This document shows positions 3,431-50,109 of a stretch of 64,000 nt of DNA, piece after piece. Numbering within the stretch: the stretch's first letter is position 1; every line of letters starts with the position of its first letter. Below the pieces are notes generated by a model that was not told where the DNA came from, did not search any database, and saw nothing but the letters and a program-made list of their open reading frames with translations. Made by a program: the position numbers and the translations under genes. This stretch comes from Leucoraja erinacea (Eukaryota), in contig NC_073383.1 of assembly GCF_028641065.1 (NCBI RefSeq), positions 29,636,001 to 29,700,000 of the forward strand. The letters are read 5' to 3'.

Positions 3431-5607
3431 TGTCCTCCATTCATCTTAGTTTTGATCACATTTCCCTGCTTTCTCTGTCAGCCTCCATCTACAACCTGCA
3501 GAGTTTACCCACTGGTACCCCTCTCCCTTCTGGTTCCTTCTGCCCATCATCTTTCCCATATCAGTACCATTATTACCTTGTTTCCAGCACTGTGTGTGTG
3601 TGTGTCCCTCCAGCTTCACTACATCTTCACCCTCTGCTCCGTTCACCTGGATGCACGTGTCCTTTTTTCGCCTTGTTTGCTTCAGCCTATCGCCCAGCTC
3701 CCTCTGTCTCTCAACCCAACCTCGTTTCCCCTCCCCCACCTGGCTCTATTTGGCCATCAACATTCATTCCCTTGTACATCTCTCTAAGCTACTTGCTGCT
3801 TTTCATTATACTGCGGTACATGCGATAATAAGCTAAACTAAACTACTCCCCTCCCTTTTTACCGGGTAGAACACCCTCTGTCCCGATGCAGGGTTTCGAA
3901 CTGAAATGTTGATAATTTCCCTTCCACAGATTTCAGCCTCTGCAATCATGTGATTCCAATAGAAATGAGAATTCCCACAAGGAAAATTAGGGAAAAATCT
4001 CAATTCATTAAGAACACTTTGACAGAAAAGTGTAACAGTGTTATTACTGGTAGATTGTTTGCACATTTATTCTGCCCTTGCTCTCAAACCAACTCCTGCA
4101 TTTAGTTGCATTGTTACAATTTACTGGAATGAAGATAATTCAAGATAATTTGCTTGTCTATCAACTTGAGTTCACTGCTGTAGATGTATGAGATTGAATT
4201 TTATGCAAAAAGTAAGCAATTTAGACATCATTGTTCTGGGGGAATTTGTATTTTTATTGGGAGTAATTCTTTAGTTTCTGTTTCTTCTCTTTAAACAAAT
4301 GGCTTTTTTACTTTTTTTGCTATAGAATATTTTTTTAAATTATAGTGCTGGTTTTACAGACCTGAACAATAAAAATCTTTGATAGAATTTGCTTAATCCT
4401 ACAACAAGCCAAAATGCAATGCTCTCCTTTATTTTAGAATATTTTGAGGTGTTTACAGAGGTGATGATTGCCATGCTGCAGAGGTTATTAACTGAGATTT
4501 TGTTATTTGAGGTGACTGAAGTTGTTTATAACTACAGTAGCTCTAGAGACCTACAGCATGGGAATGAGGCCTTCAGCCCGGTTGGTCCAAGGTGATCAAA
4601 ATGGTCATCTGAACTAGTCAAATTTGCTTGTTTACACTCTTCACTGTCCACTGTCATGAATTTTGCTGTCATCTGCGAATGTGCTAACCATATTATCAAC
4701 GTTGTCATCCAAATGTTAATATAGGAGACAATCTACAGTGGACCCAGCAGAGATCCCTGAGGGACACAAATGGTCACAAGCCTCTAAACCAAATAACATC
4801 CCTTCATTACCACCCTATCACTCCTTCCACTGAGCCAGATTTGTATCCAGTTGGCTAGCTCAGCCTGATCCCATGTGATCTAACACCCCATTGGGGCCTT
4901 GTCAAAGGCCTTGCTAAAGTCCATGTAGACAACGTCTACTGCCCTGCCCTCATGAATCTGTAAACAGTGGCATATTTCTTTTCCTGAAATTATAAATTGG
5001 GATCAATTAAATTAAAAGTTCGTAAATGTTTATATTTGTTCCAATTTCTAATTTGAGAATATACAAGCTCCATACAGACAGCACCCATAGTCAGGATCGA
5101 ACCTCATCTCTGGCGCTATAAGGCAGCAAACTCTACAGCTGCCTTTTATATGAATGAATCGTGCCTTTCAACTGATGAGATTTCAAATGTTGCCAAAAAT
5201 ATGATTGAAAAATTCCATTCGTAGTTCTTGGGATACATGCCTTAAACATCTGGGAAACCCCCTTCAATCAACTTTTTCACACCACACCCCAGCAACCTTA
5301 CTGTTGAACAACTGGAATGCAACTGGTTTCACTGATTAAACAGCCAGATTTATGTATTTGCTGCTGAAAGCATCAAACCTGTATTTGCATTCCAGTAATT
5401 GGGCAGTGATTGAAGCTCAGAATAATATCTGCATGGGATGGCATGAATGCAAGAAGAATGTGCAGGATAATATGAGCACTTGGACATCTAACATAGCATC
5501 AGAACTGCTTGCCTAAATACCATAATTACAAGCAAATGCCTCTACAAACTCCTGGACCTAAGACTCAGCACCACCTTCGTCAACAGGATCCTTGAACTTG
5601 ATTGATT

Positions 5608-5900
5608 GGATTCGAAGATAGAGCATGGAAGCATGCCCTTTGGGCCACCGAGTCCATGCCGATCATCGATCACCGGTTCACACTAGCTCTATGTTATCCC
5701 ACTTTCTCATCCACCCTACATATTCGTGGCAATTTATAGAGGCTCATTGACCGATAAACCCACCTGTCTGCGATGTGGGAGGAAACCCTCGCGGTCACAG
5801 AGTAAAAGTGCATACTCCACACAAACAGTATCCGAGGCCGTGATCGAATTTGGGTCTCTGGTGCTGTGAGGCAGTGGCTACCAGCTGAGCCACTGTCTCC
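5608..5900 (-). mobile_element. HE1-like SINE
   Basis: Reverse complement of the SINE at 54416-54722. Confidence 0.65.
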
Positions 5901-7559
5901 CTTGAACCATAGACGGCAATCAGTAAGGATAGGCAACAGAAGAAACAAAACCGTGACAACATATACCACCAGATTCAGGAACAATCTCTTCCTTGTTGTT
6001 GCAGCCCATACATTTGTCTTTTACCTGCTTTTCTCTGCAGTTGCATCACTGTATTATGCACTGTTTATTTTCTCATTTGCATTATCTCATTTTTTTTACT
6101 GCTTGATTAGTAAAAGTGTCGGGGGGTTATGGAGAGAAGGCAGGAGAATGGGGTTGATCATCCATGATTGAATGGCAGAATTGACTTGATGGGCTGAATG
6201 GCGAAAATCAGCTCTTATAACTTATGAACATGTTTACTTGTGTATGGCACGATTTGCCTGGATCATGAGCAAAAGTTTTTTTCAATGTACAGTGACCTCC
6301 ATAATGTTTGGGACACAGCAATGTAATGTAAATGAAAGTAGTCATGTTGAGTATTTTGTTGCATATCCTTTGCATGCAATGACTGCTTGAAGTCATGGAC
6401 ATCACCAGTTGCTGGGTGTCATCTCTTGTGATGCTCTGGCAGGCCTGTATTGCAGCCATCTTTAGCTTATGCTTTGTTTTGGGGGCTAGCCCCCTTCAGT
6501 TTTCTCTTCAGCATATGAAAGGCATGCTCAATTGGGTTCAGATCGGGTGATGGGCTTGGCCACTCAAGAATTTACCATTTGTTAGCTTTGAAAAACTCCT
6601 TTGTTGCTTTCACAGTATGTTTGGGATTATTGTCTAGCTGTAGAATGAACCGCCGGCCAGTGAATTTTGAGGCATTTGTTTGAACTTGAGCAGATAGAAT
6701 GTGTCTATACACTTCAGAATTCATTATGCTACTACCATCAGCAATTGTATCATCAATGAAGATAACTGAGCCAGTACCTTCAGCAGCCATACATGCCGAG
6801 GCCATAACACACCCCCCCCCCCCCCACCACCGTGTTTCTCAGATGAAGTGGTATGCTTTGGATCTTGGACAGTGCTTTCTCTCCTCCATACTTTACTCTT
6901 GCCATCACTCTGATATAAGTTAACCTTCGTCTCATCTGTTCACAAGACCTTTTCTCAGAACTGTGGTTGCTCTTTTAAGTACTTGGTGAACGGTAACCTG
7001 GCTATCCTATTTTTGCGGCTAACCAGTGGTTTGCATCTTGCAGTGTAGCCTCTATATTTCTGTTCATGAAGTCTTCTGCGGACAGTGGTCATTGACAAAT
7101 CCACACCTGACTCCTGAAGAATGTTTCTGATCTGTCAGACAGTTGTTTGGGGATTTTTCTTTATTATAGAGAGATTTCTTCTGTCATCAGCTGAGGAGGT
7201 CTTCCTTGGCCTGCCAGTCCCTTTGCGATTAGTAAGCTCACCAGTGCCCTCTTTCTTCTTAATGATATTCCAAACAGTTGATTTTGGTAAGCCTAAGGTT
7301 TGGCTGATGTCTCTAACAGTTTTATTCTTGTTTCTCAGTCTCATAATGGCTTCTTTGACTTTCATTGGCACAACTTTGATCCTCATGTTGATAAACAGCA
7401 ATAAAAGTTTCCAAAGGTGATGAAAAGGCTGGAGGAAAGACTAGGTGCTGAGAGCTCTCTTATACCTGCATTAAGGAGGCAATTAAACACACCTGAGCAA
7501 TTACAAACACCTGTGAAGCCATGTGTCCCAAACATTATGGTGCCCTAGAATGGGGGGAC

Positions 7560-9190
7560 CAGGCACGTGCCGTCAGGGTAGGCAAGGTAGGCAGTGCCTA
7601 ACCTGACTAAAATTATAAAATGGTCATTATTAAATATAAATAGTAAAGGCGCGGGAGAATTGTGCCTACCTAAGAGATCGATCTTTCATCCACAGTACGT
7701 GTAACACACGAAACTATCTGCAACTCACGTGCTGTCGACGCTGCTTCATGCCTTCAATGACAACGGTCTATAAAGGCAGCTGAAATTCTGCCATTCCACC
7801 GTGGACTACGTGCATGTGCTGTGCAGCATACCGTGCATGCGCAGCGCAAGTATCTTGGCGGGTTTTTCAAACATGGATTGTCATTATCTTACGAGTATCT
7901 TAAGAAACAAAGAGAAGAATGGCGTTCGTGTACAAATAATGTGGTAGGTAAATTTCTTTGAGCTACCGTATTTCCCGTCAATGAAGACGCACCTGCGTCA
8001 AAGACGCACCCCCATTTTGAGTTGCTAAATTCTGGAAAAAAAGGTGGCAGGGCAGAATTTCTCACGCTCAAAAAATAAAAATAAAGAAAGTAACAATTCA
8101 ATTTGCCCAAGGCTTCCAGATCTCCTCCATACTGAATGGGTGGGGGTTGGAGGGTGACGGCAGGTGGAAAAACGGCAGCACACCAGGACAAGTTGAATCA
8201 GTTGTGATCTTATTGAATGACAATAAGATCACAACTAGTTCTAGTTGTGAATACTAGTTCATGGGACCAATTGGGGGAAGTCTGGCCCGGGTCAGCACGG
8301 GCAGGAGCGCTGAGAAGGAGGGGGTCGAGGATCATGCCAGCAACTCGCTCACCGTTGCTGCAGCCAGCTTACTCCTGTGTCAGCGCGATCAAGGGACCAA
8401 TTGAGGTTAGTCGCGCTGACACGGCAGTAAGCTCCACCACCCGCTGTCCTGTTATCCATCACCCACTGACCCGCTCCGCTCTATGATCTTTGCTCTTGAG
8501 CTGGTCCCCTCATTGTCCAGTCTACATTGAAAGACACGGACCGGGCATGAATGCCATGCAGTGTCACCCAGCGCAGCAAGTGAGGCCATGTCCTGCACCC
8601 GGCAGTAGCTGGAATTTAAGGAATGGCGGCCGCACGCAGCCACCTGAACTACTTCCCTCCCTGGCCACAATGCAGTGGCTCCGCGCCTGGAGCGTAGCGG
8701 CAGCGGTTAGTGAGTTGCTGGTATGATCCACGACCCCCTCAACGCTCCTACCCGGGCCAGACTCCCCACACGCTGTGAAAGGAAAACCCCCCCCCCCCCC
8801 CCCCTCAACGGCACTGTCCTTTTACAGCCGCTTCTCATCAGCTGCCAGCATTGAGGGATAGACTTGGCTATCCATCAGTGCAGCAACATCTTTCTTGATG
8901 TTGCTGTACTGAGGGATAGCCGTCTATCTTTCTTGGCTAACAACCTAACCTTCGGCCTCCAAGATGCAGGTAAATTTTCGTGCCTTATTTTTAGGTTTAA
9001 AAATAGCGTCTTCATTGCCGGGAAATACAGTGTATGTTTTTAAATATTTATTAAGAGATAAGGCTTTTGAAGACAAATTGCTTTATAAAATTTGACTACC
9101 GGAGAGGAGAACAATCTGCGCATGCGCGGTTTTTGAGATTATTTTAAAGCCGACTGCCTACCGTGAATAATTACTCACGGCAGGTGCCTG
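7560..9190. mobile_element. Non-autonomous hAT-like TIR element nested in the Tc1 IR
   Basis: TIRs CAGGCACGTGCCGT / ACGGCAGGTGCCTG (13/14 match); Tc1 IR sequence resumes immediately after 9190. Confidence 0.65.
7966..9030. mobile_element. pogo/Tc2-like non-autonomous element nested in the hAT-like element
   Basis: TA|CCGTATTTCCCGTCAATGAAGACGC and GCGTCTTCATTGCCGGGAAATACAG form a 25-bp TIR with 2 mismatches. Confidence 0.75.
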
Positions 9191-9396
9191 GTATAAACAC
9201 AGCTGTAATTTCTACATGGTTTACATGGTGAAAACAGAATGTATAAAAATGGCCTTTAATAAAACCTGACAATGTGCACTTTAACCACATGTGATTTTTT
9301 TTTCTATTACGAATCTCAAATTGTGAAGGACAGAAGCAAATAAATTCATGATGGGTAAAGACCATTAATGTCCCAAACATTATGGAGGGCACTGTA

Positions 9397-10246
9397 TAGC
9401 CCATAAAGTTTGTAATAATCCCATGCTCAATGTAAAATGCAACTACTGCAAGAAAATTGAGAGATATGGAGTTCAGCTTCACCTGTCGCAATTAATAATG
9501 CAACACTAACTTTAGAGTAAACTCTTAATTGAAAAATCAGTGCAGCTGATTGGAGCAACACCACAAAGTGCCAGTGCCAGCTCTGCTAAATTCTTGGTCT
9601 CATTTCTCATCATAGTAGGGAGACATCTGCTGGAGATGACATCTCTTCACAGGATGACGGCTAATTTAGGCTTATTATTGTCATGTGATCCGAGGCAGTA
9701 ACAAGCTTGTGTTTTGCATGCAATCCAATCAAAGCAGATAATGATCTTAATGAATACAATCAAACCAAAGTCAAGTACAATAGGTAGAGCAGAGAGAAAG
9801 ATACAGAGTGCAGAATATTGTTCTCAGCATTGTAGTGCAACAGTTCCAGAGACAAAGTTCAATGTTGGCAATAGGATAGAGATAAATTAGACAGTATCCC
9901 AGCTCATGGAAGGACCATTGAAAAGTCTAATAACAGAGGGGAAGAAGCTGTTCCTGAGTCTGGCAGTACATGCTTTCAAGCTTCTGTATCTTCCAGCTAC
10001 TGGGAGTGGGGGGGAAGGAATAACCGAGCTGGGAAAGGTCTGATTATGTTGGCTGCTTTCCCAAGGCAGCATGAAGTATAGATAGTTGGAAAAACTGTGA
10101 AATGGGTCTCTATCCAGTACTGTAATAACTAACAATATAATAATAGCATTTCTACATCTATACTTGTATAAAACTGCACCATTACTAAATCAATATTCAG
10201 TTATAATTTCACGCAGTGGCACACTTTTCACACAATACTGCAAAAT
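9397..10246 (-). repeat. Inverted duplicate of 51119-~52005 (unique intron sequence plus an embedded Rex/Babar 3' fragment)
   Basis: Collinear reverse-complement match, e.g. CATAGTAGGGAGACATCTGCTGGAGATGACATCTCTTCACAGGATGACGGCTAATTTAGG versus 51717-51776. Confidence 0.9.
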
Positions 10247-10276
10247 TCTTTGTCCCAAACATTATGGAGGGCACTG
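10247..10276. mobile_element. Isolated 30-bp Tc1 terminus
   Basis: TCTTTGTCCCAAACATTATGGAGGGCACTG|TA, identical to the Tc1 end at 25112-25143. Confidence 0.85.
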
Positions 10277-10278
10277 TA

Positions 10279-11960
10279 ACTCCCATTAGTGTCTTCTTAC
10301 CTTTACAATCCCTCAATTCTATCCATGTAGCGACTCTACATCGTCAGTTCCTATGTCACCCCTCACAAGGGACTGAATTTCATCCCTCACCAACAGAGCT
10401 ATCCCACCTCCTCCGCCCACCTGCCTGTCCTTTTCTACAGGACGTAAAACCCTGAATATTCAGTTCCCAGTCCCGATCCTCCTGTAGTCATGTCTCTGTA
10501 ATCCCCACAATGTCATATCTGCCAATCTCTAACTGAGCCTGAAGATCATCCACTTCTTATACTCCACACATTCATATATAATATTTTAAATTGTTTACTC
10601 ACCTCACCTTTCACTTCGATTCCTATTTCACTTGCCCATGTTCTTCTATCCCTTCATGAGCTTTCTGTCCTGTTAATTCTGGTGTATTTCTTAACTTTTC
10701 CTATACTCTGCCTTTAACTCCATCCTTGTATTTCCAATTTATCTCCCCCCGCCACCCCACTATTTAGTTTAAACCCACCCGTGTAGCAGTAGCAAACCTG
10801 CCTGCCAGAATGCTAGTCCCCCGCCTATAACGGTGCAACCCGTCCCTATTGTACAACTCGCCCTTACCCCAAAACAGATCCCAGTGGTCTAAGAATCTAA
10901 ATCCCTGCCCCCTGCACCAGTTCCTCAGCCACACATTCGGATCCCCTATCTCCCTGTTCCTGCTCTCACCAGCATGAGATAACGGGAAGCTAACTGCAGA
11001 TAACCACCCTGGAGGTCCTGCTTTTCAGCCTTCTTCTGAGCTCTCCAATGTCACGCTGCAGAATCTCTTTCTTTTTCCCCAATGTCATTTGTGCGAACAT
11101 GCACTGCCACTTCCAGCTGCCCCACCTTCCCCCTTGAGGAGGCCCTGCAATCTGTCCGTGACGCCCTGGACCCTGGCACCAGGGAGGCAACACGCCATCC
11201 TTGAATCCCTCCTGTTACTGCAGAAACCACTGTCTCTACCTCTCACTATGGAGTCCCCTACTACCACGGCTCTGCCTGACGTCTGTCTCTTCGTCTTTGC
11301 CTCAGCGCCATGTTTTGACTCGCAGACCTGTCCACCGCTCAGATTGGCAGTGTCTTCTGTCCCGACAGCTTCCAAGAGGGTGTACCTGTTTTCAAGAGGT
11401 ACAACCTCCGGGGTCTCCTGTACTCCAAGCTTCCTTACCTTCCACATTGTCACCCACCTTCTCTCTTCCGATAATTTCTGTGTAATGATCTCGCTTTAGG
11501 TCCTGTCCAGGAAACTCATTTTCCCGGATGATGCTGAGGTCATCCAGTTACCTCTCCAGTTCCCTAACATGGTCCTTCAGGAGCTGAACCTGGACACACT
11601 TTCCACAGTTGTAGCAGCCAGAGGCACCAGCAGTGTCCCTGACCTCCCACATCCTGCAAGCATCACACTGCATCAGCTTGCCTGTCATTTCTTCACTGCA
11701 TCTCGCCCTCTCCAACTTTTAGAGTAGTCTCCTCGCCGCCGCCGCCGCCTCCTTGTCGAAGACTCTCGAGCCAAAGACTCGCACTTTTCTCACAAGGCAC
11801 TTCCCTCGACAAGGCCGCTCCCCAACAGGCTGCTCCCCTAGAGCAAACTTTGCTTATATTAACTGATAAATTGACTCAATCACTAATTAGCTAACAACAA
11901 TTTGTGATTTAATTTCTTGAGCCAATCCCCGCATTCACTCCTTCACCTGCTGCTCCTTTA
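10279..11960 (-). mobile_element. CR1 LINE 5' half (ORF1 Zn-finger/SGNH esterase plus start of ORF2 endonuclease), 3'-truncated
   Basis: ORF1 motifs PLENRYTLL, VVVGDSIVRG, CCLPGARVQGV; the 10279-10810 part is homologous to the CR1 at 13315-13830. Confidence 0.8.
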
Positions 11961-12456
11961 TCGACCTTGAAGGTATGTGTTGGACAATTGAAGCACACAA
12001 ATCTGCCTTGCAATGGACATCGCAAAGGCAGCGCTTCAAGAAACTATCCATGCCTGAATTGTATTCCATGCAGTATCAAAGCAGTTGGTGGCACACTGCA
12101 GAGTCAATTGGAACCAATCAGAGAGTTACGTTGCAATCTAGCCATCACTGAGGTGTGAAAACACAAGGAACTGCAGACCCTGGAATCTTGAGCAGAACAC
12201 AAAGTGCTGGAGGAATTCAGCAGATCAGGCTGCATCTGTGGAGAAAAATGTAAAGCTAGATGGAGAAATATGGGAGGGGAGAGAGGGTGGATATTAGGGA
12301 AGATTAGTGAATAAAAGAAGGGAAAGGAGCAGTGTCACTGGAGGTGTGGGAGCTGGTGGTAGAAATGGAAGCACGCTGGGATGGGGGAGAGTGGGCACGA
12401 GGAGGGGGTTAAGAGGGCATTACTTGAAATTGGAGAATCCAATATTCATACAGTTA

Positions 12457-12933
12457 AGGGGCTGTCCCATTTGGGCGATCTAATTGGCGAGTTTAGAGTT
12501 TGAAAAAATAACATGTTGAAGACCTCCTTCGACTATGTTGAAGTCTAGCTTCGACTAGCTATGACTAACTTTGGAGAAAATTGGACATCGAATAGTGGAG
12601 AGTGAAGATGATCTCCATTCGACTGTGATGAAGGCTATCTACGACTACCTTCGACTACCCTCGATTACCTACGACTAACACCGCCGACCTACTACGAGTA
12701 AAAAAAGTATCGATTTTTTTTTTTCCATGGCGACCTTTTTTTACTCACGGGCATTATTTAACATATTGAAAAGAACGCCGCGACCCAGCTGAGGCCTCGA
12801 GTACGCGGAGACCACTCTCGAGCATGAAGGAGAGTTACGAAGACCTACGACCTTGTGTCGACCATGCTGCGAGTATGAGTCGAGGGCAAACTCGCCAGAA
12901 CTCGCGGATTAGGTCGCCCGTGCGGCAGACCCT
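12457..12933. mobile_element. PIF/Harbinger-like MITE
   Basis: AGGGGCTGTCCCA left end, degenerate right TIR, TTA on both flanks; internal ACCT(T/A)CGACT micro-repeats; inverted homolog at 49175-50103. Confidence 0.7.
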
Positions 12934-13299
12934 TTAGGTATGATTGAAAAATGGAAACTGCTTTTCAGTTACCCAATCTGCAATGTAAGCATCCTATTTG
13001 TTCAACTACAGTACAATGACTAATCCTTTCCCGATATAATGCTTTACACAACATTATTACGTTTCCAATATAACTGTGCTTGTCTCCAATGTGGGAGCAG
13101 AGCCATCAAACTGACCATTCAATTTAATAATCCTTGTTGCTAAATTTAATGTACATCTTAAGTGGCTTTATTTAACATTCAAGTCGACTTATCTGCAAAT
13201 GTTATACGAGTACTTCAATGCAGTCAGAACCGCAGAAAGAATTTTAAAAGGGGAAAATCCTTCAGTGTTGATGTTTGTGTAGAAATGTCCTAGCTGATG

Positions 13300-16200
13300 T
13301 GTAGTATATGTGTAGGCTTGCTAGGGCTACATGTGTGGGTTTAAACTAAATAGTTGGGGGGAGGGATTGACAAATTGGGAGTATAAAGATGGAGTTAAAG
13401 GGGAAGCGAGTACAGAAAAAGTTACAATAGACTCCCGTATTAATGGGAAGGAAAGTTTGAGAAGGGATAAGAGAGTAAGGTCAGGGCCAATTTTGAGAGG
13501 GGAGGTGAATACCAAAGTCAAAATGTTGTATATGAATGAGCGAAGTATAAGAAATAAAGAGGACGAGCTTGAGGCTCAGTTAGAAATTGGCAAGTATGAT
13601 GTTGTGGGAATTACAGAGATATGGCTGCAAGAGGGCCAGGGCTGGGAACTGAATAATCAAGGGTGTACCTCCTATCGAAAAGACAGACAGGTGGGCAGAG
13701 GGGGTGGGGTAGCTCTGTTGGTGAGGAATTAAATTTAGTCCCTTGCAAAGGGTGACATTGAAACTGGAGATGTGGAATCAGTATGGATAGAACTAAGGAA
13801 TTGTAGGGGTAAAAACACCCTAATGGGACATCTACAGGCCCCCAAACAGTAGACTGGATATGGGGTACAAGTTGAATCAAGAGTTAAAATTGGCATGTTG
13901 TAAAGGTAATGTTACAGTTGTTATGGGAGATTTCAACATGCAGGTAGACTGGGAAAATCAGGTTGGTACTGGACCCCAAGAAAGGGAGTTTTGCGAGGGC
14001 CTCCGTGATGGATTCTTAGTGCAGCTTGTATTGGAGCTTACCAAGGAGAAGGCAATTCTGGATTTAATGTTGTGATTTGATAAAGGGAACTTTGAGGTTA
14101 AGGAGCCATTAGGAGGTAGTGACCATAATATGGTAAGTTTTAATCTACAATTTGAGAGGGAGAAGGGTAAATCGGAGTTGTCAGTGTTACAGCTGATCAA
14201 AGGGGACTATGGAGCCATGAGGAGCTGACCAACGTTGACTGGAAAGTTACCCCAGCAGGGTGACGGTGGAACAACAATGGCAGGTATTTCTGGGAATAAT
14301 ACAGAAGGTGCAGGATCAGTTCATTCCAAAGTGGAAGAAAGATTCCAAGGGGAGTAAGGGACGACCATGGCTGACAAGGGACGTCTGGGACAGTATAAAA
14401 ATAAAAGAGAAGTAGTACAACGTAGCAAAGATGAGCGGGAAGCAAGAGGATTAGGTAATGTTTAAAGAGCAACAGAAGATAACTAAAAAGTCAATAAGGG
14501 GAGAAAAGATGAGGTACGAAGGTAAGCTAGCCAAGAATATAAAGGAGGATAGTAAAAGCTTCTTTAGGTATGTGAAGAGGAAAAAAATAGTTAAGACCAA
14601 AGTTGGACCCTTGAAGACTGAAAAAGATGAATTTATTATGAGGGATAACGAAATGGCAGATGAACAGGTACTTTGGATCTGTCTTCACTAAGGAGGACAT
14701 AAACAATCTTCCCGATGTACTAGTGGCAGAGGATCTGGGGTGACGGAGGAACTGAAGGAAATCCACATTAGGCAGGAAATGGATGGGACTGAAGGCTGAT
14801 AAATCCCCAGGGCCTGATGGTCTGTATCCCAGGGTACTTAAGGAAGTGGCTCTAGAAATCGTGGACGCATTGGTGATCATTTTCCAATTTTCTATAGATT
14901 CAGGATCAGTTCCTGTGGATTGGAGGGTAGCTAATGTTATCCCACTTTTTAAGAAAGACGGGAGAGAGAAAACAGGGAATTATAGACCAGTTAGCCCAAC
15001 ATCGGTGGTGGGGAAGATGCTGGAGTCAATCATAAAAGATGAAATAGCAGCACATTTCGATATCAGTAACAGGATCGGTCCGAGTCAGCATGGATTTACG
15101 AAGGGGAAATCATGCTGACTCGGACCTTCTGGAATTTTTTTGAGGATGTAACTAGGAAAATGGACAAGGAAGAGCCAGTGGATGTAGTGTACCTGGACTT
15201 TCAGAAAGCATTTGATAAGGTCCCACATAGTAGATTAGTGGACAAAATTAGGGCTCATGGTATTGGGGGTAGAGTGCTGACATGGATAGAAAATTGGTTG
15301 ACAGACAGGAAACAAAGAGTAGGGATTAGCGAGTCCCTTTTAGCATGGCAGGTAGTGACTAGTGGGGTACCGCAAGGCTCGGTGCTGGGACCGCAGCTAT
15401 TTACAATATACATCAAGGATTTAGATGAAGGGATTCAAAGTAACATTAGCAAATTTGCAGATGACACAAAGCTGGGTGGCAGTGTGAACTGTGAGGAGGA
15501 TGCTATGAGAATGCAGGGTGACTTGAACAAGTTGGGTGAGTGGGCAGATGCATGGTAGATGCAATTTAATGTGGTTAAATGTGAGGTTATCCACTTTGGT
15601 AGCAAAAACAGGAAGGCAGATTATCTGAATGGTGTTAAGTTGGGGAAAAGGGGATGTACAAATGGATCTGGGCGGTCCTTGTTCATTAGTCAATGAAAGT
15701 AAGCATGCAGTGAAGAAAGTGAATGGCATGTTGGCCTTCATAAGAAGAGGAGTTGAGTATAGGAGCAAAGAGGTCCTTATGCAGTTGTATAGGGTCCAAG
15801 TGAGACCACACCTGGAGTATCGTGTGCAGTTTTGGTCCCTCTTTAGGAAAGGCATTCTTGCTATTGAGGGAATGCAGCGTAGGTTTACAAGGTTAATTCC
15901 CGGGATGGTGGGACTGTCATATGCTGAGGGAATGGAGCAACTGGGCTTGTGTACTCTGGAAATTCGAAGGATGAGAGGGAATCTTATTGAAACATATAAG
16001 ATTATTAAGGGTTTGAACACGCTAGAGGCAAGAAACATGTTCCCGATGTTGGGGGAGTCCAGAACCACGGGCCACAGTTTAAGAATAAGGGGTAAGCCAT
16101 TTAGAATGGAGACGAGGAAACACATTTTCACACACTTCACAGAGTTGTGAGTCTGTGGAATTCTCTGCCTCGCGGTGGAGGCCGGTTCTCTGGATACTTT

Positions 16201-16360
16201 CAAGAGAGAACTAGATAGGGCTTTTCAAAATAGCGGAGTCGGGGGGATATGGGGAGAAGGCAGGAACGGGGTACTGATTGGGGATGATCTGCCATGATCA
16301 CATTGAATGGTGGTGCTGGCTTGAAGGGCCAAATGGCCTACTCCTGCACCTATTGTCTAT
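13300..16360 (+). mobile_element. CR1/HER1-like LINE with near full-length disrupted ORF2 (endonuclease plus RT)
   Basis: LYMNERSIRNK, GITEIW, GDFN, GSDH, NYRPVS, YLDFQKAFDKVPH, SGVPQGSVLGP, FADDTK; several stops and frameshifts; CTCCTGCACCTATTGTCTA tail. Confidence 0.95.
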
Positions 16361-17670
16361 TTCTGGAATTCTTTACCCTAGAATGTGTGGCTATTCAGTA
16401 GATTTATTTAAGAGGATTTTCTTGAGAATAAAGTCAATAGAACTCGTAGCTCAAAATGACGGTGGAAACTTATCAATTTGCAAATATATCGAGTGAGCTA
16501 TCGATGGAGCTGTAACTGCAAGATTTTGCTTCAAGACCTAGAAGGTGGGATTGGGCTAGATTACATTTTTTAGGGTGGCATGCTGTTTGGTGGCTAATAG
16601 TCACCTTCTATGCCACCTACGATTTATGGGGATGGGAAAGAGAAGTTGAGCTGGATAAACCTTGATCATATTGGATGGTGGAGCAGGACACATTCACACA
16701 GCTCTTTCCTGCTCCAATCTAATTGCTCCACACTTTGTTGCTGATCACCAAAACTGGCTGGTAAAATCTTGCTATTTGTTCTGAAGTTCAGAAACACTAA
16801 TTTTAACTTGCTGAACTTTTAACATTTAGAAAGTAATTAGATTTCAAAATACTTAGACCAATAAATTAACTAATATATTAATCCCTCACACTTGATGTTC
16901 TCCACTGGGGAATAAAGGGAGTTCTGGGTTTATGTGCCCAGATTATGGACTGGCAGCTGAAAAGTGTGTGGGAATGAGATAAAGAGTCCATGAAAAGAGA
17001 AGGGTGAAGATGTGGTCCCGTGTGGCGTCTTCTCTGCTCTTTTTGTCCTCTGCCATCCAGTTCACAGCAGCACATTCAGAATCCTCCACAAGCCTCTTTG
17101 CCAACCTCAGAATGTCGCTGTCGGTGCTTCCCCCGGGCCCTCCTCTGTGCTCTGACAGAACGTCCTTTAAACACAGAAAACAAGAGGATGGAGGGGTGGT
17201 TCATGTGGTTGGAGAAGAGAGAGGCAATGGAAACTTGGGTGGGGGAGATGAAGTAAGAAGAGGGATGCAGACTGTGGATATCAAAGGGCCAAAAGAAATA
17301 TTAAGTGCAGGGAACAAAGGGAAAAGTAATGTGGTGCGAAAGGGTGGGAATTGTCTTTTATTTCTTTACTATGTAGAAGGAAGTCATTTGAATCCACTTA
17401 GTCTATGACAGCGCAGAGAGTAATCCCATTTTCTCTAAGCTATTGCCCTCTCATTCCCATCAATCTGCTCCATCCTAGATGGAAGGATGGGATCTAAGGG
17501 AGGATGGGAGGTTAGGGAGCAAGGGAATAATTGGAGGAGGTTTATGGGGAGGTTGGGGAAAGAGTGACAGTTGATTGGGGCATCTGTGCCAGAGCCCATC
17601 CGTTTGAGCGTTTCTTGCTGATCGACATCTTGTATGTCCGTATGTGCTCCTGTAGTGTCTGATCGCTCAT

Positions 17671-18286: not shown

Positions 18287-19451
18287 CTCATGTTTTAGAT
18301 CTTATTCCCACAAACTAAGTTTTGCTCTATTAAGTCAGTGGGATGGATAAAGTGGCCATTCCACATCCAAAAATGTAACGAGCAGACGTTTGCACTGCTG
18401 AATATGAATTTTGAGACCTGGGGCATCATGAATATTCCTCATGGGGATTGACTTGAATTTCACTCTATAATCATAATACTAGACCACAAATACTTGGGCG
18501 TTCACATCCATGCCTTGGTCAGAGCAATGAGTGTACTTTGCAGAGGACAACTGGAAAAGGAGTGCTGTCATCAGTTGTTGATCTATTGCTGTCAAGAACA
18601 GGCTGGTCTGACATTTCACCAACTCTCTTTGAGATGTGTGAATGTCTCGTGACCCTCCAGCTTGCAGAACCAACATACTCCTGTCATCAGTGCCTGCGAC
18701 TAAATCCCAAAAATACAGGCGTGATCACGGAGGACTTGTACACCTACCTTGCAAACCGCTATTGCTGCCATCAGCCTAGCCTCAAAACCGCAACTGAAAG
18801 GGATAAGTTGATGCAAACAAATACATTGAAGGTCTTCTTTCTTACAGCATCACTGATAATATAATAGCCCTCGACCAACTGGAGCATCAGAGCATTCATT
18901 ATTGCTGGAGAGCCATCATACTTGCCATCTGTGACAAGATTCTTGGTATCTACAAGAAGAAAGTAGCATGTCTGGATTGGTGAGAATGAACAAAGATATC
19001 CCATTCATAATTAATTACTACTAACAGCAGAAGTCCTTCACAGGCAATAATTCCCCCCATTGAAATGAATGGTAAAGTAGTTCCTGTGCCAATCTAATCT
19101 TGTGCGGTATATTGATTAATTAAAAGATACAGCATACAAACGGGCCCTTCAGCCCACTGAGTCCACACCGACCATCGAGCACCGTTCACACTAGTTCTAT
19201 GTTATCCCACCATCTCATCCATTCCCTACGTACTTCTTCATAGGACACCAGAAGTGGAATGCATTTGGAGGAATAGCATTGAACCACGGGTGTAACTTTG
19301 GGTAGATACAAAATGCTGGAGTAAAAAGCAACTTTGGGTCTTCTGCATTGTTGTGGAATTCCTGAAGTTGGTCTAGCAGGGAAATGTCCCTAATTATACA
19401 GATATTTGCTGTAAAGTTGAGATTGTGCTTCGAAAAGAAAATTTCAAGATA

Positions 19452-20688
19452 CAGGTGCACAACCTTTTATCCGAAAGCCTTGGGACCAGACACTTGTCGG
19501 ATTTCGGACATTTTCGGATTTCAGAATGGAAGATTTTTAGCGTAGATTAGGTAGGTAGCGCGGGCGGCTTGAAAAGTCTGGAGCAGCTGCCTCCTCCCTG
19601 GAGACCGGGAGAATCATTGCATAAATGTTAGTCAGTTAGTTTGGAGGGATTTTATGTGGTGGTGGTGGTGTAGGGGTGAAGGGGGAAACTTTAATTCTTA
19701 GTCCCCTACCTACCTGGTCGGCGACTCCCAACCTCGCGGAACTGGGGGCTCCGTCCGGCCGCGGGCGGCGCCGGTTGTAGCTCCGACCCCGGCAACTCTA
19801 CCCCTGGCTGCGAGGCGCTCCAAATCCAGCGCAGCCCGCGGCCGGACGTCCCAGCTCCGAGAATGTCGGGAGTCGGCGGCGTCGCAGCGCTGGGATACCA
19901 GCGGGAAGCGAGCAATGCCTTACCGGGTCGCCGTGCGGCAAGCTCCGGAGCGCTGTGGCCGCCTTCTTCCAACATTCGCGGAGCGTCGCTGGATTTGGAG
20001 CCGCGGAGCTGGGGGCTCCGTCCGGCCGCGGGCGGCGCCGGTTGGAGCTCCGACCCCGGCAACTCTACCCCTGGCTGCGCGGCTCCAAATCCAGCGACGC
20101 TCCGCGATGTTGTGTGTCGGCGGCCACAGCGCTCCGGAGCTTGCCGCACGGCGACCCGGTAAGGCATTGCCCGCACCCCGCTGGTATCCCAGCGCTGCGA
20201 CGCCGCCGACTCCCGACATTCGCGGAGCTGGGGCGTCCGGCCGCGGGCCGCGCTGGATTTGGAGCGCCTCGCAGCCAGGGGTAGAGTTGCCGGGGTCGGA
20301 GCTACAACCGGCGCCGCCCGCGGCCCCACCGGCCACAGCGCTGCGGAGCTTACTGCACAGCGACCCGGTAAGGCATTGACCGCTCCCCGCCTCTCCGACC
20401 AGGTAGGGGACTAAGAATTAAAGTTTACCCCTTCACCCCCCTTCACATAAAAGCCCTCCAAACTAACTGACTAACATTTAAGCAATGATTTACAGATGTT
20501 TAAGCGTCTCCCGGTCTCCAGGGAGGAGGCAGCCGCTACAGTAGTACAGACCTGGGTTGACCGTGGGTCGTTTTGGGTCAGGTTTGGCGCCAAACGCGAG
20601 CTTTGGTGCGCAGACGACATATGGAAAAAATGGCCGGTTTTCGGAGCTTTTCGGTTTCTGGAACACCGGATAAAAGGTTGTGCACCTG
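19452..20688. mobile_element. Tigger/pogo-like MITE with a CpG-rich palindromic core
   Basis: TA|CAGGTGCACAACCTTTTATCCG ... CGGATAAAAGGTTGTGCACCTG|TA (perfect 22-bp TIR, TA TSD); long internal inverted arms. Confidence 0.9.
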
Positions 20689-22119
20689 TATACAGTTACT
20701 GCTTTTTATTCAGAAACATTCCATTTCTCTGTTTTACACAAGTATGCCTTTGAAAATTAAGATTAATTTACATTTATTTTTTAATATGCATCTATGTATC
20801 ACTAATTTACTGCTTTACTGGATACGATCATCAACACTTCCTTCAGCAGGTTCATCCCTGTTACTAGCTGAAAGTAAACAAAAGTGAATAAAATCCAAAA
20901 TTAACTGCCATACTAGTAGCCTTATGTGGCAGCAGAATTGTATAAGGGTTAATGTAAAATTTTTTACTCAAATAGTAATGGGATGAAGAATGATTAATTA
21001 GTGGAGATGTTGTCTGTGACAGTGCAATTTAACAGCTCATACATCATAAAATTACATTTATTTACGCATTTTAAAAAGTAATTGTATTTGATGCAAACAA
21101 TTAGAAGTGACGGTGAAAGCTTGACTTCGGGGTCATACAGTATGGAAAAGGGGCCAACTTGCCCATGCCGACCAAGATGTAGATGTACACTAGTCCCACA
21201 TGCGCATGTTTGGCCCATATCCCTCTAACCTTTCCTATCCATTTGCTTCCATCCATCCAAATGTCTTTTAAAGTTTGTTATTGTACCTGCCTCAACTACC
21301 TCCACTGGTAGCTCGTTCCATGTGGAAAAAGTTGATCTCAAGTTCCTATTTAAATGTTTCCCCTCACCATTAAATATCTCAGGAAAATTATCTAATGCAT
21401 GGCAATGCATCTAAATATACATTTTCCTTTTGCTAATCTGGTTAGATCTCTAAGTTTTGTTTTGAAAACAATTTCTTTGACAAAACCATAAGCTGATAGT
21501 TTTACGTTTTTGTGTTCTAAATAACAACAAAATATACAGATTGCAAGGAAATATTAAAACTACATTTTATGATAATAGCTGTTAAACCCGACTATACCCA
21601 TCTGACAGGTTAACATTGCACTAACTGACAAGAGATGGTCAAAGGACATAACTGCAGCAAATGTTCTTTTGGTAATATGTTTAAAGGTGTCAAAACGCCA
21701 CATTACCGGACATTCAGATTAGATGTATGTGTTATGAACAGCAATGAAGATACCCAGTTTGTACGAACCAGATTAAAAAAAGTTATTGATAAACGCTGTT
21801 TCCATCATTCCCACTTCAGAATTAATGTTAAAAGTTTAACTGAAATATCTCCTGACCAAATTTGTGATGTATATGACCGACTGTAAAAGTAAAATCTGGA
21901 TAAATCCAACGTATAGTTGTGAATGTTTTCATTAAATAACTACTGTACTGATACTCCATATTAAGAGCATTGATTTGCCGATACAATGAATTCTGTAATA
22001 ATGTGTCAACGGTAGCAGTGACAATCGAATACTGCGGTTTTAATCTTTCACGTGTTCACAATTTTATTAATCCATCTTTATGGATTAAAAACAAATAATA
22101 ACATTGGGAATTAAAACAC

Positions 22120-23584: not shown

Positions 23585-23673
23585 AAGCCGGGCAAAATGG
23601 CTCAGCATTTAGGTTGCCCGGCGGCACTTAGGGTGGTCATTGGCACCCGGGCAACCGCTAATTTCGAGCCCTG
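23585..23673. mobile_element. Single hAT-like terminus; partner end not found
   Basis: Ends ...TAATTTCGAGCCCTG (reverse complement CAGGGCTCGAAATTA) with GGTTGCCCGG/CCGGGCAACC subterminal repeats. Confidence 0.6.
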
Positions 23674-25141
23674 CTAGTCTTTCCTCCAGTCTTCGCATCA
23701 CCTTTGGAAACTTTTATTGCTGTTTATCAACACGAGGACCAAAGTTGTGCCAATGAAAGTCAAAGAAGCCATTATGAGTCTGGGAAACATGAATAAAACT
23801 GTTTGAGACATCAGTCAAACCTTAGGCTTCCCAAAATCAACTGTTTGGAACATAATTAAGAAGGAAGAGAGCACTGGTGAGCTTACTAATTACAAAGGGA
23901 CTGGCAGGCCAAGGAAGACCTCCACAGGTGATGACAGAATTCTCTCTATAATAAAGAAAAATCCCCCCAACACCTGTCCGACAGATCAGAAACATTCTTC
24001 AGGAGTCAAGCAAAATGTTCAAGAAGGAACTGCAGATGCTGGAAAATCAAAGGTAGACAAAAGTGCTGGAGAAACTCAGCGGGTACGGCAGCATCTATGG
24101 AGCGAAGGAAAAAGGCAACGTTTCGGGCCAAAACCCTTTTTCAGACTGATGTGGCGGGGGGTGAAAAGAATGATCACTGACCACTGTCCACAGAAGACTT
24201 CATGAACAGAAATACAGAGGCTACACAGAAAGATGCAAACCACTTGTTAGCCACAAAAATAGATGGCCAGGTTATAGTTTGCCAAGAAGTACTTAAAAGG
24301 GCAACCACAGTTTTGGAAAAAGGTCTTGTGGACAAATGAGACGAAGAATAACTTATATCAGGGTGATGACAAGAGCAAAGTATGGAGGAGAGAAGGAACT
24401 GCCCAAGATCCAAAGCATACCATCTCATCTGTGAAACACGGGGGTGGGGGTGTTATGGCCTGGGCATGTATGACTGCTGAAGGTACTGGCTCACTTTTCT
24501 TTATTAATGATACAACTACTGATGGTAGTAGCATAATGAATTCTGAAGTGTATAGACACATCCTATCTGCTCAAGTTCAAACAAATGCCTCAAAACTTAT
24601 TGGCCGGCAGTTCATTCTATAGCAAGACAATAATCCCATCTGCTAAAGCAACCAAGGAGTTTTTCAAAGCTGAAAAATAGTCAATTATCTGATCTGAACT
24701 CAATTGAGCATGTCTTTTATATGCTGGAGAGAAAACTGAAGGGGACCAGCCCCAAAAACAAGCATTAGCTAAAGATGGCTGCAATACAGGCCTGGCAGAG
24801 CATCACCATAGAAGACACTGGTGATATCCTTGAATCGCAGACTTCAAGCAGTCATTGCATGCAAAGGATATGCAACAATATACTAAAGATGACTACTTTT
24901 ATTTACATGACATTGCTGTGTCCCAAATATTATGGTGCCCTGAAATGGGGGGGACTATGTATAAACACTGCTTTAATTTTACATGGTGAAACCAAAATGT
25001 ATGAAAATGGCCTTGATTAAAATCTGACAATGTGCACTTTAACCACATGTGATTTTTATCTATTACAAATCTCAAATTGTGGAGGACAGAGGCAAATAAA
25101 TAAATGACGGGTCTTTGTCCCAAACATTATGGAGGGCACTG
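23674..25141 (+). mobile_element. Tc1 transposon copy 2; 5' IR missing, transposase decayed, PLE fragment inserted at ~24010-24170
   Basis: WTNETK, VKHGGGGVMAWACM motifs; complete right IR with inner DR (TGTCCCAAATATTATGGTGCCC) and outer DR ending CACTG|TA. Confidence 0.9.
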
Positions 25142-27578: not shown

Positions 27579-27691
27579 GAGCTCCAGTTTGAAAGGCTTA
27601 CAAGAGAGCTTGAGTTGGAACGGCAGATTGTTGCAAATCAACTAGAAAGATGCAAGCTGGGAACTGAATCGCCAAGTGGCGCCAGTGTCAG
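27579..27691 (+). CDS. PKP4: Plakophilin-4 internal coding exon (coiled-coil region; equivalent to human exon 3 from memory)
   Basis: tgtcgcAG|GAG...GTCAG|GTacag; 113 nt, phase 0 to 2; [38 protein letters not shown] matches the p120-family N-terminal coiled coil. Confidence 0.93.
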
Positions 27692-31465: not shown

Positions 31466-31889
31466 CAACTACTCCCATTCTCTCATTAACTAGATAACCG
31501 TACAACTTTTCCTCATGATCAGCTGGGTTTTACCCTATCAGAGAATCCGCCCTCTCTCACCCTCCTTGCATCTGACAAGCCTCTTTCGGCTCCTTCCCAG
31601 TTCTTATGTAGGATTTTCAACTTGAAATGTTAACTCTGATTCTCTTCCCACAAATGCAGCCTGACATGCTGAGAAATGGAAAACCAGCATTTTCTGTTTC
31701 TTTGTCACATTTTTAAATGTTTTTGTTTCAAGTGGTTTAACCCCTTCCAGTCTGTGCAGTACTTGACAATACTTAATTTACAAGTTACTTTTGGACAATC
31801 AGAATGAAAGAGAATTCCAAGGTATGAATAGGATTAGCGAATGGCATAATGAGAAGTCAATAGTGTTCACATTACTGCACAACATTGTA

Positions 31890-32690
31890 CAGGTGCACAA
31901 CCTTTTATCCGAAAGCCTTGGGACCAGACACTTCTCGGATTTCGGAATTTTTCGTATTTCGGAATGGAAGATTTTTAGCGTAGATTAGGCGGCTTGAAAA
32001 GTCTGGAGCGGCTGCCTCCTCCCCGGAGACCGGGGAATCATTGTAAATCATTGCTTAAATGTTAGCCAGTTAGTTTGGAGGGATGGGTGAAGGGGGAAAC
32101 TTTAAGTCTTAGTCCCCTACCTGGTCGGAGAGGCGGGGAGCGGGCAATGCCTTACCGGGTCGCCGTGCAGTAAGCTCCGGAGCGCTGTGGCCGCTGAATC
32201 CCAACATCACCGGTCGCGGGCCGCGCTGGATTTGGAGCGCCGCGCAGCCAGGGGTAGAGTTGCCGGGGTCGGAGCTACAACCGGCGCCGCCCGCAGCCCC
32301 AACTCCGCGATGTTGGGAGTCGGCGGCCACAGCGCTCCGGAGCTTACTGCACGGTGACCCGGTAAGGCATTGCCCGCTCCCCGCCTCTCCGATCAGGTAG
32401 GGGACTAAGAATTAAAGTTTCCCCCTTCACCCCCTCCCTTCACATAAAAGCCCTCCAAACTAACTGACTAACATTTAAGCAATGATTTACAGATGTTTAA
32501 GTGTCTCCCCGGTCTCCGGGGAGGAGGCAGCCGCTACTACAGTAGTACAGACCTGGGTTGACCGTGGGTCGTTTCGGGTCAAGTTTGGCGCCAAACGCGA
32601 GCTTTAGTGTGCAGACGACATCCTGGAAAAAATGTCCGGTTTTCGGAGCTTTTCGGTTTCCGGAACTCCGGATAAAAGTTTGTGCACCTG
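31890..32690. mobile_element. Second copy of the Tigger/pogo-like MITE with a shorter core
   Basis: TA|CAGGTGCACAACCTTTTATCCG ... TGTGCACCTG|TA; arms near-identical to 19452-20688. Confidence 0.9.
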
Positions 32691-33446
32691 TATAACAAAA
32701 AATCTAAAATGGTGGAAATGCAGCACATAAATCAGGATCTTTAGAAAGGGGAATGGTTAATATTTCGGGTTGAAGTCATTTAATCAGCACTGGGAAAAAG
32801 AAAAAAAAAAGACAAAGTCTGGAGTAACTCGGTGGGTCAGGCAGCATCTCTGGGGAAAATGGATAAGTGACATAGAAACAAGAAACAACAGATGTTGGTT
32901 TACAAAACAAGACACAAAATGCTAGAGTAGCTTAGTGGTTCAGGCAGCATCTCAGGGGAACATGGATAGATGACATTTCAGGTCGGGACCCTTCTTTAGA
33001 CTGATTGGAGTAAAGCGGAGAAAGCTGGAAAAGAGAAAAAACAAGTTAGCCTTAAACTGTAATGTAGGTTGGAGGAGGATGGATATACCGAATGGGCTAT
33101 GCCTAGAGTGAAGCCAGAGTTGCCATGGTGATAAGCTGTTGAAGTTTTCAGCTTGATAGCTTAATGAGAGCAGTTAGGGAGAGGGAACATAAACAAAGGA
33201 AGTAAAAGCTCTAAAATCCTATTGTAGGAAATGCTCAGTAAGTCAGGTACTCTGGAGAGGGAATAAATTGAGTCAATATTGTCAAACAAAAATTATACCT
33301 GTGCTAAATGTTTTACTTTCTTTACTTCAAACATAGAACAAAGAACAGTACCCTGACAAACACGATGCCAAGATAAACTAATCTCATCTGCCTGTATATG
33401 ATCCATATCTATCCATTTCCTGCATGTCCATGCATGTACCTTCTGA

Positions 33447-38085: not shown

Positions 38086-38400
38086 ACCTAACCCCCTTTC
38101 CCCAATTGACACAATTGTTTTTATCATGAGATTTTCTAGAACATGAGATTTCTAGGGAATGCAACTGTATCGTTTATAACAGTACCTACATTTTATTGAA
38201 TGAAATTCAAGAACCTCCTTGGTGTAGGTCAAATGAACCTAAAATATTAAAAGGCTTTGAACATTCACAAAGATCATTCATTTTATAGTTCATTTTATTT
38301 TAATAATTTCCATTGTTTTCAATGTAATGAAATGTATACAAGTGTAGCTGGCAAAACAACAAATGAAACTTTTTTTTCTTCTCTCTGCCTTTCCCAGCAG

Positions 38401-38435
38401 CTCAACTGAAAAATCCTTCCATTGGAGGCCAACAG
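38401..38435 (+). CDS. PKP4: Plakophilin-4 35-nt exon
   Basis: Polypyrimidine tract plus CAGCAG|CTCA...ACAG|GTatt; phase 2 to 1; STEKSFHWRPT (human STEKSFPWRST). Confidence 0.9.
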
Positions 38436-49160: not shown

Positions 49161-49174
49161 GTACTATAGCTTTA

Positions 49175-50103: not shown

Positions 50104-50109
50104 TTAAGC

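Follow-up and report, generated by a model that had tools for sequence, protein, structure and literature searches.

Among the systems closest to the locus described here are the Pack-TIRs of animals, in which host DNA has been copied into TIR elements. As defined by Tan et al. (2021, PMC8277862), a Pack-TIR holds 100–5000 nt of internal DNA between fragments of a single TIR element, none of which spans less than 10 nt of a terminus. The captured DNA has to be non-TE sequence, its parent locus has to be the only top hit in the genome, with at least 90% identity and a length ratio of 80–120%, and a further filter, no TE within 100 nt of the parent, guards against segmental duplications. In the portions of that study on which we draw, most animal cases are single-copy, 59.8% are intrachromosomal, 67.6% show microhomology at a breakpoint, TcMariner elements account for 115 of the 370 cases, breakpoints lean towards the interior of the TE and leave gaps, and primate outgroups carry the TE without the duplication in 91 of 97 cases. 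Multi-template insertions with microhomeology have been described for MMBIR (PMC8421209, in the part cited here), and inverted-repeat fillers together with blunt joins for SD-MMEJ (PMC2943611, likewise). Among templated sequence insertion polymorphisms, class 1 insertions are marked by a poly(A) tail and a polyadenylation signal, according to the section cited of PMC5110952.

The second relevant group comprises the composite insertions made by transposases. The papers listed on these concern maize, plus Arabidopsis (PMC12312487, as excerpted); among the open-access titles and abstracts listed, none described such an insertion for a Tc1 element of a vertebrate, an absence that counts as weak evidence. 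For Sleeping Beauty (SB), the excerpts cited indicate that end pairing begins at the inner direct repeats and that truncated substrates mobilise poorly (PMC5224488; PMC8151067), and that single-ended reactions are suppressed in IR/DR elements, with 0.54% for SB versus 6.4% for Hsmar1 (PMC5224488).

Here we analyse a 64,000-nt stretch of the genome of the skate Leucoraja erinacea (contig NC_073383.1, positions 29,636,001 to 29,700,000; hereafter the window), in which a segment of a PKP4 intron has been copied, in inverted orientation, into the end of a Tc1 relic. We argue that the result is probably an ordinary repair scar and no new mobile element.

RESULTS

A segmental copy inside PKP4

Comparison of the window with itself by BLAST gave, as the top-scoring inverted match (1190 bits), an opposite-strand match of 9395–10246 to 52007–51119, which spans 890 columns with 89.9% identity, gaps included, and an E-value reported as 0. 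The features involved are the following.

9395 to 10246, minus strand: inverted copy of the intron segment 51119–52007, from self-BLAST and alignment
51119 to 52007, plus strand: source segment, in the PKP4 intron downstream of exon 48964–49160
9661 to 10083, minus strand: LINE 3' fragment embedded in the copied segment, with window paralogs that are 71–78% identical

A global alignment of the two copies (803 matches, 45 substitutions in 848 aligned bases, i.e. 5.3%, and 15 indels) agrees with the BLAST result, so that the inverted copy of about 850 bp of a PKP4 intron segment lying some 41 kb away, which had been proposed by a sequence-only reading of the window, is real. The boundary given in that reading needs a slight shift: the intron match does begin right after the Tc1 end, but the tip ends at 9394, the TA occupies 9395–9396 and the match starts at 9395.

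The captured DNA is made up of about 420 nt that are non-repeat within the window and about 420 nt of LINE fragment, which we take to be Rex-like. Each of the two parts outside this fragment, 9396–9660 and 10085–10246, has one strong match within the window (E 3e-87 and 2e-48, respectively), the runners-up reaching E 0.045 and 0.18; within these 64 kb the duplication is thus a segmental copy, local and linked to a Tc1 end, as had been suggested. These single partners also bear on the possibility that the two copies belong to a dispersed family, be it an ordinary repeat or a multicopy Pack-Tc1, and lie close to each other by chance. Other repeat pairs of the window are similarly diverged (4.6% for a TA-flanked miniature element, 6.4–8.5% for LINE pairs), but neither terminal repeats nor a target duplication were found at the ends of 51119–52007, the search of the window for Tc1 tips (up to seven mismatches) found none near 52007, and the outer flanks of 6290–10276 are unpaired (see below), all of which makes a dispersed family most improbable. 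An assembly artefact is barely credible: the 45 substitutions and 15 indels are distributed along the full length and are more than alleles or sequencing would produce, structured features mark the junctions, and the window is devoid of any N.

We also considered a longer inverted segmental duplication, of 9.4–12.9 kb against 52–49 kb, and rejected it: the second match on which it would be based, 12456–12934/50104–49174, is a dispersed TTAA-flanked element with terminal repeats of its own, and the sequences beside the source, 50780–51130 and 52000–52260, have no partner beside the copy.

Several other features of the window were recorded. The differences between copy and source are clustered, leaving two identical runs of 100 and 104 nt, and divergence is uneven, with 3.7–3.9% in the non-repeat parts versus 6.4% in the LINE part, which rate variation or gene conversion could explain. 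The TA-flanked miniature element is present in two copies (19450–20692 and 31888–32694), 4.6% apart where compared, with GC-rich internal palindromes of differing length. Pfam searches of 13 reading frames gave hits for five of them and none for the frame inside the copy or for the PKP4 exons, and Rfam returned no match for 5500–12500. On the minus strand, a reverse-transcriptase frame at 41482–42552 (Pfam RVT_1, E 3.9e-23) is open over 356 residues and is better preserved than is usual for the LINE relics of the window.

The Tc1 relic

The window contains exactly four Tc1 tips (up to seven mismatches), with ends at 6290 (minus strand), 9394, 10276 and 25141. The features of the element and of its second copy are the following.

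6290 to 9394, minus strand: Sleeping-Beauty-like Tc1 relic (IR/DR, D34E spacing), its transposase at about 6330–7400 with stops and frameshifts
6288 to 6315, plus strand: TA and left Tc1 tip, the outer and inner direct repeats being fused within a 17-nt shared core, by comparison with 24919–25141
7560 to 9190, no strand assigned: element with short terminal inverted repeats, nested in the terminal repeat of the Tc1
23674 to 25141, plus strand: second copy of this Tc1 family, which lacks one end

The element is an IR/DR Tc1 of the Sleeping Beauty group, as characterized by an SB-like transposase, the D34E spacing, repeats of about 230 nt with inner and outer direct repeats, and a TA target, and it is not coding-competent. 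In the relic 6290–9394, the transposase is preserved as fragments across three frames, in which the D34E spacing is legible, with a stop within it; the HTH_SB profile matches with E 4.7e-5, below the curated cut-off, and the paralogous copy 23674–25141 matches SB100X with E 2.7e-20. This second copy retains an intact terminal repeat of about 220 nt (24919–25141), whose inner and outer direct repeats have 17 nt in common, and it is the only copy that serves as the intact terminal-repeat reference. Its 5' side (23590–23674) is apparently cut by the end of another element, and its other terminus is absent from the window.

With respect to this reference, the outer tip at the left end of copy 1 runs directly into the interior of the inner repeat, 197 nt of terminal repeat having been lost. 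The nested 1.6-kb element (7560–9190) lacks a target duplication, and 3 nt are missing there relative to the second Tc1 copy; numerous inverted repeats are nested within it. Mixed BLAST strands had raised the possibility that one of the Tc1 copies contains an inversion, which was dismissed, the terminal repeat and the left-end fusion accounting for the pattern. Note that the two Tc1 copies (6299–7444 and 23674–24935) form an inverted pair in one intron; the larger part has a predicted duplex of −1156 kcal/mol and the pair brackets no exon.

Anatomy of the junctions

Three short features delimit the copied segment.

9357 to 9368, plus strand: 12-nt filler replacing repeat positions −29 to −27; its first 9 nt reproduce the neighbouring repeat sequence in inverted form, one base short
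9369 to 9404, plus strand: duplicated tip (26 nt, ending at 9394), TA (9395–9396) and 8 further nt
10247 to 10278, plus strand: last 30 nt of the Tc1 terminal repeat and TA, presumably the original tip, joined bluntly to the copy

Reading towards the tip, copy 1 tracks the reference up to −30, carries the filler in place of −29 to −27, and resumes at −26 through to the tip and the TA. The filler, which has no other exact match in the window, had been described as a micro-inversion: it does comprise an inverted local copy of 9 nt, but the event is not a clean one, since 12 nt stand in for 3 and one base is missing. As the reference repeat is a single copy, the filler could also be a Tc1 subfamily variant. 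Immediately upstream, at 9345–9350, two adjacent substitutions relative to the second Tc1 copy form a short palindrome, possibly the trace of another local template switch.

At the opposite end of the copy, the return join (10246/10247) lies at repeat position −30 and is blunt, without microhomology. The filler and the return join therefore fall at the same point of a repeat of roughly 220 nt, whereas two independent events would be expected to lie within 3 nt of each other in about 3% of cases by our own arithmetic. The simplest description of the locus is an insertion into one terminal repeat, and not a packing of DNA between two elements. The claim that the segment had been captured between two Tc1 termini is not supported: what looked like the second terminus is the last 30 nt of the same repeat, most simply its original tip, and the first is the duplicate. 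The stretches 9369–9404 and 10251–10286 form a direct repeat (33 of 36 positions identical) that extends about 8 nt beyond the TA. A candidate template bridging the blunt join was found in 9583–9602, 660 nt away, which 10238–10257 resembles at 17 of 20 positions (16 of 20 in the source). It was set aside as a weak lead only, the null varying with window size (2, 4, 59 and 241 of 1500 decoy junctions reach its score with the four sizes used); SD-MMEJ repeats are scored within 20 bp in the cited part of PMC2943611.

The join to the intron admits two readings. The 10 nt that follow the duplicated tip match the source at 8 positions and the flank of the second tip at 7, so that the join can be placed either at the tip plus TA, in a transposase-like manner, or about 10 nt further, at a microhomeology. 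One base among the first 10 of the copy agrees with the flank and not with the source. Where the copy switches to the intron, the source and the LINE flank have in common, in register, the TA plus a 4-nt run (TA...CCAT). In-register runs of at least 4 are found at 126 of 7875 TA sites within 8 nt and at 260 of 7875 within 12 nt; a plain identity of at least 4/8 is reached by 938 of 7875 TA sites, and by that measure the microhomeology is unremarkable. The Tc1 target-context score at the source, based on the consensus of Tc1 target sites, is 4/6 for the aligned TA and 5/6 for its neighbour, values reached by 7% and 1% of 3938 TA sites, respectively. All these junction tests are post hoc, in that they were designed after the sequence had been seen.

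The direct duplication also raises the question of an RNA-templated origin, in which a LINE reverse transcriptase would have been primed on PKP4 pre-mRNA from a nick 10 nt past the tip, a nick at −30 yielding a 40-nt target duplication. A flanking direct duplication does exist, the left-primed template would be the sense strand, which is found in the pre-mRNA of the same gene, and the window holds reverse-transcriptase relics. However, inspection of the 52007 end and of 9395 revealed neither a poly(A) or tandem tail nor an AATAAA near the 3' end, and the duplication is long, with one copy scarred, which nick priming does not predict; we regard this origin as improbable.

Unpaired outer flanks

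The right flank of the element is a LINE, which we take to be CR1-like.

10279 to 11800, minus strand: LINE cut at a TA inside its endonuclease-coding region, the 11800 end being approximate and set by eye

The reading frame of this LINE reaches up to the TA that follows the second tip; this TA is thus native LINE coding sequence, so that the second tip is a real integration end. A paralog at 13314–16361, with endonuclease and reverse-transcriptase hits, continues for 2.5 kb beyond the cut point. The corresponding continuation (at least 2.5 kb as judged from the paralog) is absent from the left flank and from the rest of the window: a search of the window returns only the paralog itself, and the score of the alignment between the left flank and the LINE continuation is reached by 32 of 200 shuffles, i.e. 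the LINE is not continued there. The outer TA flank to the left of the Tc1 and that to its right derive from different sites, and at least 2.5 kb of LINE are missing, a failure of pairing that went unremarked in the sequence-only reading. The left flank itself may be a different LINE tail cut at a TA. A local test against six LINE tails gave a score reached by 0 of 500 shuffles and 1 of 300 random 65-mers, and a window-wide profile search gave E 4, which is not significant, so that this assignment is suggestive only; the conclusion on unpaired flanks rests on the right-flank LINE. A single deletion, from the outer repeat of one Tc1 to the inner repeat of a different copy, would account at once for the fusion at the left end and for the flanks that fail to pair; an adjacent deletion would serve as well, and so would an inversion within the intron.

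Since its outer flanks are unpaired, 6290–10276 did not arrive by one transposition, and nothing indicates that it ever moved as a whole. Nor is the view of this interval as a potentially mobilisable unit supported. Its transposase is in pieces, as seen above, its outer TA flanks do not add up to a single target site, and no end has a usable pair of outer and inner repeats: the left end has the outer repeat only, and on the right the inner repeat is split from the tip by the nested element and the 850-nt patch. On the reading that we favour, the patch is an immobile, probably neutral fossil.

Direction and age of the duplication

In the global alignment, 12 gaps (41 nt) fall in the 9-kb copy and three (3 nt) in the 51-kb copy (12 versus 3, p 0.035), and in the non-repeat parts all seven indels shorten the 9-kb copy. 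The direction of the indels mildly supports the 9-kb copy as the derived one. Junction hallmarks are present at both of its ends, and none at the 51-kb copy. Substitutions in the LINE part, once polarised with the LINE paralogs, are symmetric (18 versus 14, p 0.60, one unresolved) and hence uninformative on polarity, and the copy shows no excess of errors; the LINE-part indels polarised in the same way give 2 versus 3, with one unresolved.

The divergence of the duplication (5.3%) can be set against that between the two Tc1 copies (6.9–10.2%). The duplication thus somewhat postdates the separation of these two copies; transposase activity at that time is neither proved nor excluded by these ages.

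The inverted pair and PKP4 splicing

The host gene is skate PKP4, an exon at 53.6–54.2 kb showing 98% identity to plakophilin-4 of Rhinoraja longicauda. The two copies had been said to form an inverted pair around four PKP4 exons, and these were recognised.

27579 to 27691, 38398 to 38435, 48687 to 48818 and 48964 to 49160, plus strand: four PKP4 exons between the arms, all with AG/GT splice sites, 480 nt in total with an open frame

Canonical splice sites and a length of 480 nt in frame bear out the claim, and loss or circularisation of the four exons keeps the frame. Among the 42 inverted matches of at least 100 nt, nine bracket the same four exons, and the 9395–10246 pair is the strongest of the nine. 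Its predicted duplex (−1386 kcal/mol) is the strongest of the six that were folded, the next bracketing pair reaching −735 kcal/mol. The upstream arm of the pair lies 17.3 kb from the acceptor, and one other bracketing inverted match begins 14 nt after the donor site. A literature search for 'circPKP4' found nothing. On this basis, the inverted pair is a candidate only for driving a 480-nt in-frame PKP4 circle or an exon skip.

Two further observations concern the surroundings of these exons. A TTAA-flanked inverted-repeat element that holds a LINE 3' fragment occupies 49174–50109, 14 nt past the donor of exon 48964–49160, and its inverted copy at 12456–12934, upstream of the four exons, is another candidate pairing partner. 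At 48640–48687, where isoform X3 of R. longicauda has extra residues before the exon, the window has an in-frame stop, with a usable acceptor at 48687.

DISCUSSION

Origin of the patch

We give slightly better than even credence to a one-off repair insertion in which, at a break in the terminal repeat of the resident Tc1, 30 nt from the tip, synthesis switched templates serially. The anatomy of the sequence and its junctions are read directly, and from them we infer the order of the steps and the enzymes, as well as the polarity and the neutrality of the patch. A break, or a collapsed fork, 30 nt inside the terminal repeat would have been followed by (i) copying, by the left 3' end, of about 9 nt of the nearby opposite strand, giving the inverted filler; (ii) resumption of forward copying at −26, across the tip and over some 10 nt of the LINE flank; (iii) a switch at the TA...CCAT microhomeology to the intron 41 kb off in the same gene, about 880 nt of which would have been copied inverted; (iv) rejoining of the right end at −30. 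The product would be a patch within a direct duplication of 36–40 nt that contains the Tc1 tip by chance, hence the apparent second terminus. Such an event would be akin to a single-copy Pack-TIR and may have involved gap filling or switching of the MMBIR/polymerase-theta type. Transposase may have made the break, whose edge is the inner border of the outer binding repeat, and would not be needed for the joins.

Template switching is favoured because a single episode then accounts for the filler, the second copy of the tip, the microhomeology and the position of the return join. The suppression of single-ended reactions in SB relative to Hsmar1 was counted on the same side, as were the traits of animal Pack-TIRs given by Tan et al., the multi-template MMBIR insertions and the SD-MMEJ fillers. 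It has weak points: the 8/10 match to the source lets the join sit exactly at the tip plus TA and a mosaic heteroduplex is required, the target context at the source TA is favourable for Tc1, the return join is blunt, the microhomeology is common by plain identity, and all the tests are post hoc. The lack of an excess of errors in the copy, the reliance of the filler on a single reference repeat and the terminal position of the break, where Tan et al. find breakpoints leaning inwards, also count against it.

The first and second of these points lead to a possible but rather unlikely alternative, namely that transposase made the tip–TA–intron join. A Tc1 would once have stood at the source TA (52007–52009) and given rise to a composite insertion as in maize: ends from two sister chromatids would have integrated at the LINE TA, 41 kb off, and the arms, broken or re-replicated, would have been joined to each other at a point 850 nt along the donor flank and 30 nt within the sister's terminal repeat, a later deletion removing the left flank. 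In a variant, repair would have copied the tip and flank of a neighbouring Tc1 since lost. A composite insertion predicts that the termini have the same orientation, that a TA marks the join, that the segment is inverted, that the internal fusion is blunt and that the donor site is empty; in addition to the favourable target context and the 8/10 match from the TA, the source reads TATA, one of eight SB footprints according to the abstract of bioRxiv 10.1101/659086, the structure is analogous to the maize cases as outlined in PMC4270019 and bioRxiv 2020.01.07.897926, and TcMar elements are expanded in skates according to the passage cited of PMC12361510. However, this route leaves two things as coincidences, the filler at the fusion position and the in-register 4-nt match to the LINE flank (1.6–3.3% of TA sites), it predicts outer flanks of one target site, which would require a further event here, and TATA is also frequent by chance in an AT-rich intron. 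The complete scenario of a natural composite insertion by a vertebrate IR/DR Tc1, with a 41-kb hop within PKP4, 850 nt of donor flank, a TATA footprint and a fusion at the edge of the outer binding repeat, appears more doubtful still. Thus, one of the two mechanisms offered by the sequence-only reading, template switching, is retained as the favoured one, whereas Tc1 transposase hopping is possible but not favoured, since microhomeology in register continues past the tip and the filler coincides with the return join.

Significance

If the patch results from template switching, which we take as the best reading, the locus matters little in itself: it is one more intronic templated insertion in a dead transposon, albeit with an unusually legible anatomy. 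It does illustrate how the duplication of a transposon tip can give the false impression of a composite element. Positions −26 to −30, the inner edge of the outer transposase-binding repeat, are where three rearrangements of this element end, namely the fusion on the left, the filler and the return join. Should this clustering hold genome-wide, it would designate a fragile position in Sleeping-Beauty-type ends, and a large number of genomic breaks at −26 to −30, if found, would mark the binding repeat as a site that breaks repeatedly and seeds local duplications in skates. If, on the other hand, the composite reading were true, alternative transposition with re-replication, as known for maize Ac/Ds, would extend to Sleeping-Beauty-type elements, with a natural vertebrate case.

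Comparison with known systems

In maize Ac/Ds composite insertions, as far as PMC4270019 and bioRxiv 2020.01.07.897926 are cited here, an element, a flank, an end-joined junction and a partial terminus are found in an array, as they are at this locus, where the junction between flank and partial terminus is the blunt join 10246/10247 at −30. In those cases, the captured DNA is donor flank and the outer ends have one target duplication. Here, by contrast, no donor element is seen at the source: there is no tip near 52007, and the TATA found there is compatible with a footprint but common by chance. The outer flanks differ and the outer termini lack a common target-site duplication, which a later deletion could have erased. 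The elements, moreover, are of different superfamilies, Tc1 versus hAT.

The locus resembles templated sequence insertion polymorphisms of classes 1 and 2 (PMC5110952, in the section cited) in that the copy of a distant locus forms a patch and the donor is intact. Class 1 requires a poly(A) tail, and neither such a tail nor a polyadenylation signal is present at the 52007 end or at 9395; class 2 insertions are without target duplication, whereas 36–40 nt are duplicated here.

The locus also resembles the MMBIR and SD-MMEJ products described in the cited parts of PMC8421209 and PMC2943611: serial switches, an inverted local filler, microhomeology and an apparently blunt return. Three templates (inverted local, forward local and distant) precede the return to the original template, and junction homology amounts to the TA plus a 4-nt run at the intron switch (126 of 7875 TA sites), with none at the return join. 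The scale differs, one template being 41 kb off and about 880 nt long here, whereas the cited yeast cases are short tracts within 100 bp.

Like single-copy Pack-TIRs, finally, the PKP4 patch is host DNA of 100–5000 nt copied in cis into a TIR element, with its parent intact and microhomology at one breakpoint. In this instance, the insert measures 852 nt and is bounded on one side by the Tc1 body, whose tip is at 6290, and on the other by the final 30 nt of the repeat; the parental identity is 94.7% over aligned bases (89.9% counting gaps) with a copy/source length ratio of 0.96, values that derive from BLAST and alignment and not from BLAT. A LINE tail (52057–52206), outside the copied segment, lies 50 nt from the 52007 end, i.e. 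within the 100 nt that Tan et al. keep free of TEs around the parent. As this filter fails, and as genome-wide uniqueness and the outgroup state lie beyond a 64-kb window, we do not file the locus as a strict Pack-TIR. A multicopy, mobilised Pack-TIR would have a one-site target duplication and copies at distinct sites; here the right LINE is cut at a TA and the left flank is not its continuation. The locus further departs from the single-copy cases of Tan et al. in that the break is terminal, inside the terminal repeat, with TE sequence (the tip) duplicated, where those cases show a small internal gap, in its three templates, in that half of the captured DNA is a LINE fragment, and in its unpaired outer flanks. 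In conclusion, the patch is probably of a known kind, a templated insertion from break repair, working in the manner of Pack-TIRs or of complex templated insertions.
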